Assembly: GCF_023055435.1 (NCBI RefSeq)
Contig: NW_025964372.1
Span: forward strand, 44,268,001-44,332,000
DNA from: Haliotis rufescens
Lineage: Eukaryota
Direction: 5' to 3'
Length of the DNA stretch: 64,000 bases
How positions within the stretch are numbered: position 1 is the first letter of the stretch; the number at the start of each line of letters is the position of its first letter. Of this stretch, positions 11,766 through 44,900 are shown piece by piece. A model generated the notes under the pieces. That model saw nothing but the letters and a program-made list of their open reading frames with translations. It was not told the origin of the DNA and ran no database searches. The position numbers were made by a program, and so were the translations under genes.

Positions 11766-12199
11766 GAGGGCTGGGACGGGTAACTCGGGTACTCGGGTAC
11801 TTGGGTTGGTACTGAGTAGGACCCGGGTACCCACAGGACTACCCTGACCCGTGGTTAGTCCCGTGATTAAATTGTTTAATGGCATAAATTATCTAGAACT
11901 CTATGGTTACACTGTAAGTGAAAAATGTTCACATTTCTTTCCGACTATGCACACATTCCTTCTGACTTAATTCACTTTTATATGTTTGCATAAGGATAAA
12001 ACTTCAGTCAACTTCGGTGTATGCATGACCAGATAATTTTATACCTGTATCTAAATACATTTTGACAGGAGTATGGTCAAACATTTCCCAATCGGACATT
12101 TTGTACCTCTCTCTTGAGACCTACAGTGTGTATCCGGGTAGGGTCGGGTAATAGGGGGTTAGGTACCCGGGTGATTAATTTGGACTCATCCCAGCCCTA
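11766..12199. mobile_element. hAT-like MITE
   Basis: TIR AGGGCTGGGA/TCCCAGCCCTA, subterminal CGGGTA/TACCCG arrays, 8-bp TSD ACATGTAT/ACATGTAC. Confidence 0.82.
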
Positions 12200-13267
12200 A
12201 CATGTACGTATCACTTCCATGTAAGATGACTGATTTTCAAGATGGCAGTCATGCTCTATCATATTGAGTGCACCTTTATTTAAAACTGCCAGTGTTAACC
12301 TGCTAGGCTGACACTGAATTCATTTTCCATGTAACATTTAACCAGTTTTTAATTTTGACTGGTTCACGTTGATTCATGAAGCCTACATTAGCTGGAATTT
12401 GCAATCACATGACAGTCATGTGACACTTTGTGGATTGTTTTGGAAAAGGTAGGTTTCATATTGATGTGGTGGCTTCTGGGTGCAGGGAGATTGATACTAT
12501 CTTGATATGCACTTCCCTTCTCAATACACTATAAACTTTCCTTTTATGATATCAGAAGAATAAAAACAGTTAATTCCATATATGTATTGAGAAGGAAATT
12601 GCATGATATATGTTGATGCTGATATTATATGACATTTGGTGGTGGGTTAGCAAAGAGGTTGAAATCCCATTTTCAAATTTTGAAAACTGCCGTTTTTCGC
12701 TAGCTTGGCCAGTAAGCAATGCTTCGCACATGATATAGTAAACATGCATGTTCCAATGTCTTTGCACTGTTTCTGCTAACCTTTGTTACCCACCCAGTTC
12801 TATCTATCTTTATTTGCTGTTGATGTAGAGCTTTGTGATAAGTGCTGGTGTTGGGACATAACACTGATAGTCTTGTACTGACACTCCCAGTTATATTGTT
12901 GTAGACTAAAACACTACCCTGTAGTACACCTTACAGATGACCAGTTAATTTATTATTTTCCCAATATCGTTATCCATTATTTTTTCTTTCATTCTGTTAA
13001 ATATCAAATTATATGAATACCTTTACGTAATTTGAGTATTTGTTTTTTTTGAGTTGGAGAAATGAAATAGCAAAAATCGTTACTGTTGAACAGAACGTTA
13101 ATAGTTTGTATTTAATTCAAATGTACAGAGGTCTGTTCATATGCTAATTTAGTTTTACCTTTACATTTATTGAAATCTTATCTATTTTTCCTTTAGTGAA
13201 AATGCTTACCCAACCTTTTCATTTTTTGTTATCACATGATAGTATTCACCACCGCTCAAACTATCCT

Positions 13268-15290
13268 GTCACCACAACCCCACACCACACAACACCACAC
13301 CACACCACACCACACCACACCACACCACACCACCAACAGCAACCAATCCCAAAACCACGCAGATTGACACCTCACTATTACCACAACACACAACCCAACA
13401 CCACAACCCTAATCCACGCAACCCCAAAACCACACATCCCAGACACAACCCCACACCACACAACCAACACCAACCAATCCCAAAACCACGCAGATTGACA
13501 CCTTGCTATTACCACAACACACAACCAAACACCACAACCCTAATCCACATAACCCCAAAACCACACATCCCAGACACAACCCCACAACACACAACCAACA
13601 CCAACCAATCGCTAAAACCATGCAGATTGACACCTCACTATTACTACAACACACAACCCAACACCACAACCCTAATCCACACAACCCCAAAACCACACAT
13701 CCCAGACACAACCCCACACCACACAACCAACACCAACCAATCCCAAAACCACGCAGATTGACACCTCACTATTACCACAACCCGCAACACACAACCCCAA
13801 CACCCCAAACCCAAAACCTCGCAGAATGGCACCACACTACCCCGACACCACACTATTACCACAACACACAACCCAACACCACAACCCTAATCCACACAAC
13901 CTCAAAACCACACATCCCACACACAACCCCACACCACACTACCCCGACACCACACTATTACCACAACACACAACCCAACACCACAACCCCAATCCACACA
14001 ACCCCAAAACCACACATACCACACCACACTATCTTGACACTAGAACCCCTCAGCCCACACCCCACTCCATACAACTAACTATTCCTCACAAACTTTCACC
14101 ACACTATCACAACACCACAACCCCACAGCACACCCAACAAACCTCACTCCACACAACCCTGACTCCTCACAACCTTTCACCACACTATCACGAAACCACA
14201 ACCCCACAAACCTCACTCCACACAACCTTGACTTCTCAGAACCTTTCACCACACTATCACAACACCAGAACCCCACAGCACACGCAACAAACCCCACTCC
14301 ACACAACCCTGACTTCTCACAACCTTTCACCACACTATCACGAAACCACAACCCCACAAACCTCACTCCACACAACCTTGACTTCTCAGAACCTTTCACC
14401 ACACTATCACAACACCAGAACCCCACAGCACACCCAACAAACCCCATTCCACACAACCCTGACTTCTCACAACCTTTCACCACACTATCACGAAACCACA
14501 ACCCCACAAACCTCACTCCACACAACCCTGACTTCTCAGAACCTTTCACCACACTATCACAACACCAGAACCCCACACCACACCCAACAAACCCCACTCC
14601 ACACAACCCTGACTTCTCAGAACCTTTCACCACAATATCACAACACAAGAACCCCACAGCACACCCAACAAACCCCACTCCACACAACCCTGACTTCTCA
14701 GAACCTTTCACCACACTATCACAACACCAGAACCCCACACCACACCCAACAAACCCCACTCCACACAACCCTGACTTCTCACAAACTTTCACCACACTAT
14801 CACGAAACCACAACCCCACAGCACACCCCACAAACCTCACTCCACACAACCCTGACTTCTCACAACTCTCACCACACTATCACGAAACCACAACCCCACA
14901 AACCTCACTCCACACAACCCTGACTTCTCAGAACCTTTCACCACACTATCACAACATCAGAACCCCACACCACACCCAACAAACCCCACTCCACACAACC
15001 CTGACTCCTCACAAACTTTCACCACACTATCACGAAACCACAACCCCACAGCACATCCCACAAACCTCACTCCACACAACCCTGACTTCTCACAACTCTC
15101 ACCACACTATCACGAAACCACAACCCCACAAACCTCACTCCACACAACCCTGACTTCTCAGAACCTTTCACCACACTATCACAACACCAGAACCCCACAC
15201 CACACCCAAAAAACCCCACTCCACACAACCCTGACATCTCACAACCTTTCACAACACTATCACGGAACCACAAGCCACAGCACACAAACT
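13268..15290. repeat. Compound CA-rich minisatellite: ~132-bp unit (x4), then alternating 69/57-bp units
   Basis: Periodic CAGATTGACACC, then CACCACACTATCAC units. Confidence 0.93.
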
Positions 15291-15425
15291 TACCTCAGCA
15301 CCACCAAGCCTACACAAGAGGATGTCCCGTGTTAGCTACCCACAAACCACCACCAGCGTATCATTCAGCTCCGCCTCATGTTCTACATGCCGCTACAGCT
15401 ATCTTCTGTCTGTTCTTTTCTGTAG

Positions 15426-15764
15426 ACAAGTCGTCCCCGTTTTGTGCCACGGTCAAAGTCCCATGACGACCCTTCTCTCGATCCTCGCCCTCCCACTGGA
15501 CGTATATATCGGCAGGGTGCTCGCATTGTGCGTTCCCGCTCGCCTTCTCTTAGCCCTGCCTCCAGCCCACAACCCACACGCAGACCACCTCCTCCGCTCG
15601 ACGCCGCATCACCACAGGCATATGTTGTCACTCGATGCGACTCCTCCGACTCTCTGAGTGCTAACGAGAGCTCCGCCCTGCTCCGAGATGACGACAAGAG
15701 CAAGTCGATGAGCTCATTGTACTATGCTGACGAGGATGTTCCAACCAAGACTCGTGTGGTGTAA
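15426..15764 (+). CDS. Probable terminal coding exon of gene 1 (TSRPRFVPRSKSHDD...ESSALL...TKTRVV*)
   Basis: Strong polypyrimidine tract plus tgtag| acceptor, phase 0, matching the 858 donor. GC-rich open frame to TAA, followed by AT-rich UTR-like sequence. Confidence 0.68.
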   Translation, partial: TSRPRFVPRSKSHDDPSLDPRPPTGRIYRQGARIVRSRSPSLSPASSPQPTRRPPPPLDAASPQAYVVTRCDSSDSLSANESSALLRDDDKSKSMSSLYYADEDVPTKTRVV

Positions 15765-16463
15765 TGTGAATATGTCTGATGTGTATTGCTACTGTTAACA
15801 TCCTAGTTGCAGTGTTGTGATGTCACGTAGACATGTGCTTCATTTTCTCACATTCCTACTCTGTCTAGTCCAAGTCAAAGGAGTACATACCAATAGACAT
15901 ACCGGTAGTACTCACATCAAGTCATGTTGTCCTTAATTTGTTTTCAAAATATGTTTTACATGAATATGTATTACCTAATGATATCAGAAGGAGGTGTCTT
16001 CTTGAGAATTTGAAATGCCCTGAAAGTAACTGTGCTTTGCAAAGTTTTTGTTAAATGTTTAATAGATATTGCGTTATAAACAATCATATGACATCAATGT
16101 GAAAAAGTATTTGTTTTTTAAATATGTTAAATTTTTTGTCGTGTTCAGAAAGTATTATAGATGAATCTTTTCATTCTTACAGAGATGCACGTCACTTATA
16201 CAATAAATTGTCTTGAAAGTTTTCTAAGTTTTATAACTATTTGAAAATATATATAAATGTTGATGATAAAGAAAGAATATTGTACAAATAAACAATATCT
16301 CCTGTATTTTCATGTAGTGCAAGTTCTTCAATGCAAAGACATTTCAGAAAAAAACATTTGCTAATATTTCGTGCTTCCTTCAATTTGTAGCCTGAAACTT
16401 ATCCCACGCTTGGCTTCCATTATAGCATTCAATGTGATAGCAGTGATCCTATTTCACACAAGG

Positions 16464-26487: not shown

Positions 26488-27344
26488 GATGTCTGGTACC
26501 ATGCATCAATTTGACCAAGAATCCGAGAGGGATCCACTCAGTCACCTCTTTCAGCAAGCAGGTAGTTGGAGACCCAATTCATCTGTTTGAGGAGGTGGAT
26601 GTGGTGACGTTACTGTTGCAAACAAAACATTTTTTTGTTTTTGTGATCCAAAGGTGTTTGTGTGTGCGGTGTGGTTTTGGTGGGGTGGGGGATGCCAGGT
26701 GTTACAAAAAAACCAAAACACTTCCACTCTCCCAGAATTCGCAAACATACCTTTCTTGTTGCATGGTTGTATTCTATATTCTAGCGCACATTTGCCTGCA
26801 TACAATTTCCTGACTATTTGTGTTGGCATAGATTTTTATGATCATAGTCACAAAACATTGTTCATTTAAATATTTCCAGGACAAAAAGAATTCATTTCCT
26901 GTGTAGTCCTTTTATCCTGATGGTAAGGTGGAAATGGTTATTTATTTACTGAGACTGAAATCGCATTGGACGATTTTGAGGGCCCCTTTGTTTAGGCTTT
27001 GTAATCTATCGGATATCCTTTGTTAACAATGTAACTAGGCACAGAAGCAGGTAATATCGGACCAGCTGCCAGTCTGCGAATCCGGATCATGTGCCGAACC
27101 AATGTCAACTTACTGTAACACATAGCTTTTTGTGTTTTTTCAGCACGTTCTGCGAAGCACAGATATTTTATAACTGTAGCAAGTATTGATAAGAATTGGC
27201 ACGGAGAGTCGTCCCGTAAGCCATACTTGTTCGGCATCTATACTGGTTGGGTGCACGTGGTCGGACTCGGTTACTTGGTTGACTGCTAGGGACATTGCTA
27301 GTACAGCCATTCACTGGTTTATCTAATCCAGACTCGATTATGTT

Positions 27345-31623: not shown

Positions 31624-31781
31624 GGGGCGGTCGGGTAGCCTAGTGGTTAAAGCGTTCGCTCGTCACGCCGAAGACCCGGGTTCGATTTCCGACATGGGTA
31701 CAATATGTGAAGCCCATTTCTGGTGTCCCCCGCCGTGATATTGCTGGAATATTGCTAAAAGCGGCGTAAAACCTCACTCAC
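31624..31781 (+). mobile_element. SINE family A, full length
   Basis: GGGGCGGTCGGGTAGCCTAGTGG...GGTTCGATT head; TSD TCCACTTTCATA. Confidence 0.9.
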
Positions 31782-36468: not shown

Positions 36469-36866
36469 GAAACAGGTGATAGAATGTAGGGTACTACTTG
36501 AAGTCACCACTGAGATCTATAAGGGAGGCCACGCCGTGTGTATCGGCGGTAACAAAAAAAGTTCCCACAATGACAATTTAGTTACCATAATTGTGTAATA
36601 TGTTTTAAAAGAAATGGAGTTGAATATTTGTTTATTAATAAATTCAGTCACGTTCTCTGGCGACCCGTGAAGGTAGAGTAGGTCTTCAGCAACCTATTCT
36701 TGCCGTAAAAGGCGACGCACCACACTATCCCGACACCAGAACCCCACACCACACAACCCGCGCCCCACAAACCCCACTCCACACAACTCCGATTCCTCAC
36801 AAACTTACACCATACTATGACGACACCACAACCCCACATCACACAGCCCACAGACCTCACTACCCG

Positions 36867-37098
36867 GACCCGTGAAGATCCGGGTAGAAGAGGTCTTCAG
36901 CAACCCATGCTTGCCGTAAAAGGCGACTAACGGGATAAGGTCGTCAGGCTCGCTGACTTGGTTGATGCATGTCATCGTATCCATATTGCATATCCATATC
37001 AATCACTGGATTGTCTGGTCCAGACTTTATTATTTACAGACCGCCGTCATATAGCTTGAATATTGCTGAGTGCGGTGTAAAATAGCAAACAAGCAAAC
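36867..37098 (+). mobile_element. Family B, full head
   Basis: Starts GACCCGTGAAGATCC. Confidence 0.87.
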
Positions 37099-38169
37099 AC
37101 GTTCTCTGGCACCATTTCGGAACTTGATGAATTTAATTATCTTCGGGAAACCAACTGTGAGAGAATTATGCCATGTATTTGGAAGGACAATTATAGTGAA
37201 TAAAAGCGGCAAAACCTTTTCCGTATTCGTGAGAAATCACTGCCAAAAACAGTCGATTGTACGATTTTGACTATATTATAAGCATGTGTTTATGAATAAC
37301 TATCAAATAGTGATGATACCAGGTATTCGTGAAAAGGAGAGCGCATGCTGTCCCACCAGTGGCACCCGTCACGAACACATGCAGAGGAAAGTCAATTGTT
37401 CAGCTGAAAAAGCACGGGAACAAGTCAAGATAGGGAATAGCATCGGACGTCTTGTTTGATGCGTCAAATTTGGAATTGTCCTCCACATGTCTGAAAGAAA
37501 GTTTAACTGAGGCCTTGAATGTTGTAACCTTGATCAAAAAAATTCTGAGCAAGAGTTGATTGATGCTCTTTGAAATCTTGGTTGAAAGGGCATGCTCCAG
37601 TGAATCTAAAAAAATGTGAATTGTGAATATTGCATTAGCTGCAGCGTGATTATACCCAAGAGAGTGAGTAAGTGGGTTAGACCTTGCTTTAAACAGTTTT
37701 AATTACATACCGCGTTTTAAGCTTTACGTGGGAGAAAAAAGATATATCAACGTTACCCGACTTCCGGGGTTAACTACTTATAAATGAAGAAACATTCTGC
37801 CGTGATCCGTCTCAGACCTGCATTACTTCGGGCTTTCCTCCCACATCAAGCTGACACGTCGTGATATACTAGTAAACGGTCCAAAGAGACGTTAAACCCA
37901 ACTCTCTCACTCACTCTGTCGTGATTCTGCATCATCGTCGTCAAAACCATACATCGAGGTAACGAAGAATGACATCGGATAGCATGGTAGCCTAGTTGGT
38001 ATGGTCCCAGCCGGTTACATGGCAACACATTGAGTCCTTCAAAGTGGCAGTATTATTAGGTATATTTATTAACTGACTCCCAAGACAGTTGGGCTAACAC
38101 ATTGATACACTTTCAGTAAACTCTCACATAATTGAAATGCAATACACAAAGCATTTCATTTCATTCTGT

Positions 38170-44059: not shown

Positions 44060-44900
44060 CTTTTTTTACACATTCCCGTGGTTATTGAGGTGGTCACTTG
44101 ACTTTCCGTTGCATGTGTTTGTGACACTCACCTTTTCGCGAACACCTGGTATCATGACTATTTTATAGGTTTTTTTTACACATTCCCGTGGTTGTTGAGG
44201 TGGTCACTTGACTTTCCGTTGCATGTGTTTGTGACACTAACCTTTTCGCGAACACCTGGTATCATCACTATTTAATAGTGATTCTTAAACACATGCTTAT
44301 GATATAGGTAGAATCGCACAATGGAATCGTGAGCATATTTTAACTCAAAACTATGTACAAATCAGCCAATTGACCTTTTGGCTATCAATACTTGAGAAAA
44401 CAAAGTCCAACTTTGATTTGGATGCAGGAAGTACATTATTTGCATGTGCATGTGCATGTGTGCCTCTGCATGTGTTTGTGACGGGTGCAACCAGTGGGGC
44501 AGGATGTGCTCATCTTTTCGCTGACCCGTGAAGATTCCGGGGTAGAATAGGTCTTCAGCAACCCATGCTTGCCGTAAAAGGTGACTAAGCTTGTCGTAAA
44601 AGGCGACTAACGGGATCGGGTGGTCAGGTTCGCTGACTTGGTTGATGCATGTCATCGATCCCAAACACGTGGATCGATCCCCATGATAATAATCACTGGA
44701 TTGTCTGGTCCAGACTCAATTATTTACAGACCGCCGTCATATAGCTGTAATATTGCTGAGTGCGGCGTTAAACAACAAATCAACCAACCAACCAACCAGC
44801 CAATCATCTTTTCGCTAACACCTGGTGTCATCACTATTTTAGTGTGATTCATTGACATGTGCTGACGATATTGGCAGAGTCTTTCTGTGGACTCTGCTTT
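44060..44900 (+). repeat. Repeated non-coding tail downstream of the PLE RT (110-bp tandem duplicate plus a third copy split by family B); another copy at 31265-31460
   Basis: TTGCATGTGTTTGTGAC...CACCTTTTCGCDAACACCWGGTATCATCACT recurs four times in the window. Confidence 0.7.
44523..44803 (+). mobile_element. Family B, full length
   Basis: TSD TCATCTTTTCGCT; inserted into a Penelope-tail repeat. Confidence 0.92.

Follow-up and report, generated by a model that had tools for sequence, protein, structure and literature searches.

The repeats closest to the one studied here are the LP ('LINE promoter') SINEs described in Haliotis, Littorina, oysters and scallops by Matetovici et al. (2016; PMC4758252), with Hdi/Hmi_LP, Lsa_2, Sgl_LP, Oco/Oed_LP and the pectinoid MESC SINEs as members. 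Their first ~70 bp are common to the 5′ ends of Nimb-17_LMi, I-3_DR and RTE-9_CPB, and in the passages of that paper cited here this module is read as a promoter, a role called untested there, with a ribozyme named just by analogy with Pr77 (PMC4758252). The same genomic place, the 5′ end of a LINE, is occupied by HDV-like ribozymes in R2, R4, RTE and ingi/L1Tc elements (PMC5786205; RF00094, RF02682, RF01787). A third relevant group is that of the exoribonuclease-resistant RNAs (xrRNAs), which are typically located in 3′ UTRs and depend on pseudoknots (PMC10321173). We analysed the head of an abalone SINE in relation to these systems and propose, at a probability of about 0.5, that it is a candidate xrRNA, predicted to fold as a double pseudoknot, that stalls 5′-to-3′ decay and thereby sets the 5′ end of the SINE.

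Judged by sequence, the head of the abalone repeat is the published LP module of mollusc SINEs and Nimb/RTE LINEs. Homology was established from the scallop 'Nimb-17 homology' rows (Suppl. Fig. S2), which contain the same AGAAT strand and hairpin core, and the repeat combines a Nimb-17-type head with variable target site duplications (TSDs), terminal tandem repeats and a tail shared with a LINE. As in the published LP SINEs, a ~70-nt module is accompanied by TSDs and a tandem-repeat tail, and homology is confined to the first ~70 nt (PMC4758252). Publication thus already covers the SINE family and the module as a sequence, whereas the structure, the viral copies and the LINE carrying an HDV-like ribozyme plus the module are absent from the cited passages of that account (PMC4758252). 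Searches with the core sequence as text gave no match in the literature searched, in which the 2016 paper was the only relevant one on LP SINEs. Similarly, no account of the fold, of the viral copies or of a LINE combining HDV-like ribozyme and module came up in Rfam or in the openly accessible article text searched, whereas figures, Repbase, Dfam, subscription journals and large supplementary motif catalogues could contain one. The original prediction for this locus had proposed a non-tRNA head inherited from a LINE 5′ end, which is borne out by the homology to the LP module, and had named an existing annotation that explains the head as grounds for rejection. This applies by half: Rfam holds no family for the head (no window match at gathering score), but the head turned out to be published as a sequence module, without structure or tested function in the passages cited (PMC4758252).

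The first 14 nt of the head occur nine times in the window (the whole 64-kb stretch of DNA analysed) against 0.16 expected, and 18 copies with a body, besides partial copies, were found there. A density of 124 copies per 1.014 Mb of sampled genome leads to an estimate of ~100,000 copies or more genome-wide, a rough extrapolation from non-randomly chosen regions. TSDs of 10-17 bp flank 24 of 60 full-length copies. They end directly before the first nucleotide of the head (G1) in 15 of these, and four more show 1-nt microhomology, so that 19 of 24 copies begin at G1; in the other five the TSD ends at −1, −2 or +5, two rows representing one duplicated locus. The same counting applied to a control tRNA-derived SINE gave 21 of 35. 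Copies end in (CAAA/CCAA)n repeats. With regard to the hairpin of the head, 43 of 76 full-length copies have two units, 17 have one and 16 are unclear; the two-unit form, a 22-nt tandem duplication of the hairpin unit, is thus the commonest (43 of 60 classified). The abundance, the microsatellite tail and the common start at GACCCG had all been predicted and were confirmed, the start in six of the seven copies named (the one at 26488 has C for G).

The absence of Pol III boxes, also predicted, held for the A box, which was found in none of 60 copies within the first 100 nt, and did not extend to the body, where a B-box-like 9-mer is present at +100 to +150 (41 matches among 60 copies). The control tRNA SINE has A-box matches near +10 in most of 65 copies. 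Accordingly, the LP-SINE head falls outside the definition of a tRNA-derived (Pol III) SINE, which comprises A and B boxes and a tRNA-like head. ARAGORN detected no tRNA genes in the window, a weak test that missed the tRNA SINE too. In the SINE body (window 44620-44680), the B-box-like 9-mer lies ~33 nt 3′ of a possible decayed A box; the arrangement suggests that the LP module may have joined an old tRNA-like head, which now forms the body; pectinoid MESC SINEs and locus L124 are comparable. The tRNA-derived SINE with A and B boxes lies at window 31624-31780, with ~7 more copies and 85 in 1.014 Mb, and it has a 3′ tail in common with the LP-SINE.

The LP-SINE shows no sign of an internal cut site, since a seeming cluster of 5′ ends at +60 to +69 proved to be an artefact of BLAST with one-unit copies. 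There was likewise no excess of LP-SINE starts at the HDV-like position 8. Small-RNA runs contributed 40 and 6 reads in total, none at G1, and are uninformative on the SINE 5′ end because such libraries exclude a 270-nt RNA. Loci L010, L009, L011 and L019-L021 include full heads fused directly to internal fragments of the LP-SINE, as well as an amplified tandem pair of copies on several contigs; template jumps or segmental duplication may have produced these arrangements.

The copy at 36867 is atypical, with one hairpin unit instead of the usual two. The TSDs predicted for the family were found at the 24 copies mentioned above, but not at 36867 itself: a 13-bp TSD (36649-36661, plus strand, and 37098-37110) flanks a composite insertion at 36662-37097. 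Its 5′ end is a partial head with an internal deletion (36662-36716, plus strand), separated by a C/A-rich filler of 150 nt (36717-36866; 74 C, 50 A) from the one-unit LP head (36867-36935, plus strand), which is followed on the same strand by the SINE body and a LINE-like tail ending in (CAAA)n-type repeats (36936-37097). Low-complexity stretches at 12001-16000 and 54001-56000, with a GC skew of −0.39 to −0.77, are similar to the C/A-rich filler. The full-length copy at 44523-44803 is typical in having two units, and its 13-bp TSD abuts G1; the TSD-flanked head of another two-unit copy lies at 52426-52522, and both are on the plus strand.

To derive the fold, at least 120 metagenome loci were retrieved with a 20-nt core pattern, and further lineages were added from viral and GTDB scans. 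Among the matches listed, an upstream AGAAT strand and a 7-bp helix emerged although the pattern did not require them. Pairing was evaluated in 24 lineages by comparing each strand with its own partner against the partners of other lineages, using 33 hand-picked rows (one or two per lineage) from which nine were removed where automatic helix assignment failed preset rules (L128, L123, L065, L034, L104, L051 twice, L296 and L373). The resulting z values, which overstate independence and are not probabilities because the lineages are related, were 5.9 for P1 (5′ strand with loop strand), 8.0 in a non-circular test for P2 (7 bp), 5.2 for P3 (3 bp) and 6.9 in free register for P4 (a strand inside P3 with the 3′ end). 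P4 was 61% paired in one fixed register; it reaches at least 4 bp in 17 of 24 lineages and is weak or absent in the other seven. The LP head is thus predicted to consist of two pseudoknots in tandem, a model supported by covariation (z 5.2-8.0). P2 contains 17 G-U against one A-C pair, which assigns the fold to the plus-strand RNA.

In the copy at 36867, the covariation, the alignment and the homology to the published Nimb-17 segment place the predicted elements as follows, all on the plus strand. The P1 5′ strand ACCCG (36868-36872) pairs with CGGGT (36881-36885), with 89% paired and two-sided change in two of four pairs. A single U at 36873 bridges P1 and P2; it is conserved in 16 of 16 alignment rows and was also a selection criterion for most of them. 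P2 (36874-36880 with 36892-36898) is 92% paired, with two-sided change in all seven pairs. Pseudoknot 1 is closed by a conserved A-rich strand (36886-36891), AGAAUA in most lineages and AGAAGA here, which precedes the core in most of the 103 distinct matches. P3 (36899-36911; AGC at 36899-36901 with GCT at 36909-36911, 94% paired) encloses the P4 5′ strand ACCC (36903-36906), whose covarying partner CGGGA follows a UAA strand in 36928-36935, UAA being variable in the HDV-headed LINE described below. Between them, the P5 hairpin (36913-36927) has a GUCG/CGAC stem in nearly all lineages, GCCG here, and a 7-nt loop, U-A-N-R-A-R-G with its variants, which we take to fit the T-loop consensus. Pair counts for P5 are uninformative because the search patterns fixed its stem letters. 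Its register was deduced from the adjoining base pair (G-C in L373 and the HDV-headed LINE, A-U in L297), and an A-C mismatch in one scallop family leaves some doubt.

The original prediction of a compact pseudoknotted plus-strand RNA is upheld by the covariation and the G-U bias, though as two tandem knots, and only one of its helices, GAAGATC/GGTCTTC, survives across the 24 lineages. Two of its four pairings are wrong: the proposed closing helix CCCG(T)/(A)CGGG appears in the single-sequence minimum free energy structure but has a z of −1.7, and the GGGT/ACCC loop knot fails in covariation (z −0.2). The TTGYC/GGCRA-type hairpin is likewise present in the single-sequence structure. The supposedly single-stranded CTAA and the analogy with the HDV P4-J4/2-P2 arrangement built on it do not hold, since its C closes the GUCG/CGAC stem as the final base and the bases after it vary. 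The single sequence yields that fold because CCC as well as GGG stands at both sites in the abalone head. When 16 rows were aligned with MAFFT without guidance, the revised fold was 86% paired with two-sided change in 14 of 23 pairs, against 48% for the earlier closing helix and 62% for the earlier knot, with two-sided change in none of eight pairs.

The module is not restricted to SINEs. It heads three LINEs (L072, L097 and L105) that have an endonuclease ORF directly behind it (Pfam) and are RTE-like by layout, and it lies at the start of an RLE-type LINE inserted after a (TAA)n run (L104, presumably R4/Dong-like), in which RT, a CCHC knuckle and a PD-(D/E)xK-like motif were recognised by eye (P0001). 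In this RLE element after (TAA)n, in the scallop alignment and in two further SINE-like lineages (7 and 6 loci), the module boundary lies 5-6 nt before the conserved U. An RTE endonuclease search recovered no LP-headed LINE among 30 loci. Tandem heads were observed as well: L149:700-970 (minus strand) is a head-only array of three near-identical 74-nt units within a larger repeat, and at L051 two diverged heads lie upstream of an endonuclease-like ORF. LP-headed elements in bacterial MAG and symbiont assemblies (L291-L297) resemble animal retrotransposon DNA and are probably contamination. Accordingly, the eight GTDB matches, seven with the fold that look like animal DNA in assemblies and one chance-like, were not taken as bacterial, and 12 short matches in a phage collection were dismissed as chance.

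In viral contigs, 8 of 13 matches to the widest pattern had the fold and comprised one large DNA virus and seven RNA-virus-like contigs (six distinct); matches lacking the fold (7/12, 43/51, 5/13 and 2/9 in the viral scans) were attributed to chance. Four contigs encode an RdRP, toti-like in L300 and tombus-like in L301, L308 and L373, and two carry only a capsid, with an S-domain in L298 and peptidase A21 in L303/L307. The module is on the sense strand and 3′ of the last ORF in all seven RNA-virus contigs, starting 4, 9, 22, 72, 99 and ~120 nt past the stop in the six distinct ones, two of which (L298 and L373) have tandem modules. The 3′ UTRs measure 137-280 nt in the contigs, and the module core ends 14-119 nt from the contig ends. 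In the DNA virus, a 212,482-bp contig with an NAD-dependent ligase, the module (L299:6981-7054) lies between genes, ~145 nt upstream of a 1046-aa ORF, and its P4 is weak.

These viral copies bear on the reading under which the module was named, an internal Pol II promoter acting at the DNA level, with the RNA fold perhaps as a second function, as in trypanosome Pr77. Tandem 5′ copies would be in line with it, since monomer promoters occur as tandem 5′ copies, and so would the 5′-end position and the precise starts. It is the reading put forward in PMC4758252. On the contrary, a DNA promoter cannot account for the viral copies because RNA viruses have no DNA stage, and the covariation with its G-U bias would be left unexplained. 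We consider this the least probable of the readings weighed here, and very unlikely.

A LINE family of the same genome, located with a pattern that excluded the SINE body, provided a further comparison. The intact element is an I-group LINE of 6.14-6.18 kb (L451:615-6794; also L452-L455 and G000:C334:45117114 onward), with an ORF1 of 462 aa, an ORF2 of 1230 aa containing APE, RT and RNase H, and a TSD of 12-13 bp; a first look gave >2,000 candidates in the genome. By sequence, its first 58 nt read as a canonical minimal HDV-like ribozyme, with the LP module directly 3′: P1 has 7 bp with G1-U, P3 has 3 bp, L3 is 7 nt long and pyrimidine-rich, GG is available for P1.1, J4/2 is GCUAA and the element starts at G1. 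Three HDV-type Rfam models match this head, the best at an E of 0.004, below gathering score. The 5′ end of the LINE therefore reads as a putative HDV-like ribozyme. Its tail aligns with that of the LP-SINE, and we infer that this LINE may be the actual partner of the SINE. Across 42 distinct LINE loci, one P2 pair of the module is C-G or, with both bases changed together, A-U (24 and 18 copies); 13 of 69 sites are variable in the module (UAA included), 5 of 59 in the ribozyme and 17 of 168 in the UTR.

The starts of LINE copies were determined with a query downstream of both ribozyme and module. Among the 30 copies closest to one young subfamily, 28 begin at the HDV G1, one at +2 and one at +34, inside the ribozyme, and none at the module. 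Were the module to cut, or to start transcription, at its 5′ edge, the ribozyme would vanish from new LINE copies; the 0 of 30 starts at the module thus argue against a 5′-cleaving ribozyme as well as against an edge-starting promoter, which would give HDV-less copies.

The former of these was the lead of the original prediction, a new self-cleaving ribozyme, which would cut at the foot of P1. The precise 5′ ends, the compact fold and the invariant loop bases fit such an activity, as does the resemblance of SINE pseudoknot 1 to the HDV scaffold of the partner LINE. RTE-like and RLE-type LINEs also bear the module where other LINEs have an HDV-like ribozyme (PMC5786205), and UTRs of toti- and tombus-like viruses are known to contain ribozymes (PMC13725137). 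Nevertheless, a 5′ cut would strip the upstream HDV ribozyme that 28 of 30 LINE copies retain, would sever the viral 3′ end when placed 4-22 nt past the last stop, and is at odds with the persistence of tandem heads (L051, L149, L298 and L373). In addition, the C that would have to be catalytic is base-paired, and P3/L3 and C75 are missing from the HDV-like part. A self-cleaving module is accordingly judged very unlikely.

The exoribonuclease stall proposed above would operate differently. A SINE copy would be transcribed within host read-through or intronic RNA, an Xrn-type nuclease would trim the uncapped upstream RNA until it halts at the base of P1, 5-6 nt short of the conserved U, and the stable product would be copied by an I-group LINE enzyme, which would recognise the tail common to LINE and SINE. 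A viral copy of the fold would give rise to a short subgenomic RNA from the 3′ end, and where an HDV-like ribozyme lies upstream, the ribozyme would set the end and the module would be a mere back-up. The SINE ends are exact without a 5′ A box, and as sharp as those of the tRNA-SINE control, which speaks for the stall. Furthermore, only a stall fits a module that forms the 5′ end when it comes first and never when another end-former precedes it, because none of the 30 HDV-LINE starts is at the module and tandem heads persist (L051, L149). Stalling is the single function that fits exact ends, silence behind another end-maker, the inheritance of heads in tandem and the location in viral 3′ UTRs, and we give it even odds. 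In its favour, too, R2 template efficiency is raised by a stable 5′ fold (PMC11331408).

It has to be noted that several observations speak against the stall. Xrn1 is not stalled by ordinary H-type pseudoknots (PMC10321173), and the LP fold is none of the xrRNA classes 1-3 or coremin as presented in the cited sections of PMC12397905 and PMC10520033. The commonest SINE form has a duplicated P5 unit, and 7 of 24 lineages have a weak P4 or none. With the short viral 3′ UTRs, the three of six copies located 72-120 nt past the stop fit a 3′-terminal translation or replication element equally well. Finally, compensatory changes are kept behind the HDV ribozyme, where a stall seems redundant.

This last retention is better explained by the main rival of the stall, a cap substitute, that is, a fold binding an initiation factor or the ribosome, which would act as a 3′ cap-independent translation enhancer (3′-CITE) in viruses and from the 5′ leader in LINEs, while SINEs would ride ribosomes and capture nascent LINE protein. 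The module, compensatory changes included, persists downstream of a ribozyme whose product would lack a cap, it lies near viral 3′ ends and it precedes an ORF in the large DNA virus. Several hosts are tombus-like or toti-like viruses, and totiviruses use cap-independent translation. In the Tombusviridae, 3′-CITEs serve the same purpose (PMC6299227). On the other hand, no known 3′-CITE family was matched in Rfam, and translation alone does not explain base-precise 5′ ends of SINEs that have neither ribozyme nor A box. We regard a cap substitute as rather unlikely on balance; translation and stalling may also act together.

Alternatively, the module may be recognised by a protein of the host or of the element, or may serve reverse transcriptases and viral RdRPs alike as a template signal for packaging, localisation, end-joining or replication. 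The module lies where the polymerase finishes in LINEs (5′ end) or near where it starts in viruses (3′ end), and the invariant T-loop-like bases suggest a docking surface. The module is common to unrelated polymerases (APE-RT, RLE-RT and several RdRP groups), however, which makes a common element-encoded partner unlikely, and a shared host partner would again be the nuclease or the ribosome. Such a site or signal is deemed improbable.

Retrotransposon 5′ ends are known from promoters or ribozymes, and a nuclease roadblock, if true, would be a third way of making them; it would also explain how 'LP' SINEs reach an estimated order of 100,000 copies with neither promoter nor ribozyme. A 70-nt fold common to animal retrotransposons and to toti-, tombus- and tetravirus-like RNA viruses points to an exchange of RNA parts. 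The LP lineages offer naturally occurring covariation from which a new fold could be solved, and the LINE with an HDV-like ribozyme before the module is a ready internal control. That putative ribozyme would extend HDV-like ribozymes to the I group, a clade absent from the six listed in the cited part of PMC5786205. A small portable RNA that protects 5′ ends, if true, would be useful for RNA-templated gene insertion.

In comparison with known structured RNAs, Rfam gave no window match at gathering score and only chance-level ones at the focal and viral copies. Hammerhead, twister, pistol, hatchet, twister-sister and hairpin ribozymes had no Rfam match even at an E of up to 10 or, in a further search, 5. 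A minus-strand hammerhead (CUGAAGA) and permuted twister or pistol folds, compared by eye with the known folds, were discarded since their cores are not conserved across lineages. HDV-like ribozymes have the helix order P1-P2-P3-L3-P1-P1.1-P4-J4/2-P2 and an unpaired catalytic C75 in J4/2, whereas the LP head is predicted to be two tandem H-type knots, with the corresponding C paired at the end of the GUCG/CGAC stem; moreover, the module has no Rfam match and sits downstream of a canonical HDV-like ribozyme in the I-group LINE. Pseudoknot 1, on the other hand, corresponds to the HDV P1/P2 helix order minus P3, L3 and P1.1. Pseudoknot 1 of the SINE (window 44523-44555) aligns to the HDV scaffold of the LINE (L394:1465-1523) with the P3/L3/P1b and C75 segments missing, at a score of 25.8 against 7.1 ± 3.6 in 2000 shuffles and ≤20.0 in other lineages, a likeness noticed first and tested afterwards with loose gap costs. 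Pseudoknot 1 may have descended from the ribozyme, or knot and ribozyme may have recombined in the abalone lineage.

The mobile stem-loop s2m is also a short structured RNA found in 3′ UTRs of unrelated virus groups and reported from animal genomes; its sequence and fold are unrelated to the LP module, and we know of no retrotransposon family headed by s2m. With viral xrRNAs the module shares a compact pseudoknotted RNA in 3′ UTRs and a 5′ boundary at the foot of P1; like coremin, it has a pseudoknot plus a downstream domain, and like class 3 xrRNAs, exemplified by ST9a, SCNMV and PLRV (PMC12397905), it has a loop resembling a T-loop and a helix followed by an AGY-like triplet. The class 3 layout given in the cited part of that source (P1-J1/2-P2, an apical loop with the pseudoknot strand and the L2B T-loop, and the partner after AGY) differs from the LP module, in which the partner of the loop strand is the 5′ end (z 5.9) and not the strand that follows AGY (z −0.2). 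Coremin, as outlined in PMC10520033, has a YGAD/YGNNAD loop on hp1, a spacer and hp2, whereas the LP loop U-A-N-R-A-R-G is carried by GUCG/CGAC on the 3′ side. The three-way junction with double pseudoknot of flavivirus class 1/2 xrRNAs is absent from the supported LP helices and has no Rfam match. Altogether, the LP module differs from known xrRNAs in helix order and in its additional occurrence in retrotransposons and a DNA virus. At somewhat less than even odds, it may be a new class of xrRNA, the first one exchanged among RNA viruses, a DNA virus and several unrelated retrotransposon clades, through which the host 5′-to-3′ nuclease would carve SINEs and LINEs that have neither promoter nor ribozyme, and whose pseudoknot 1 may be an HDV scaffold stripped of its core.
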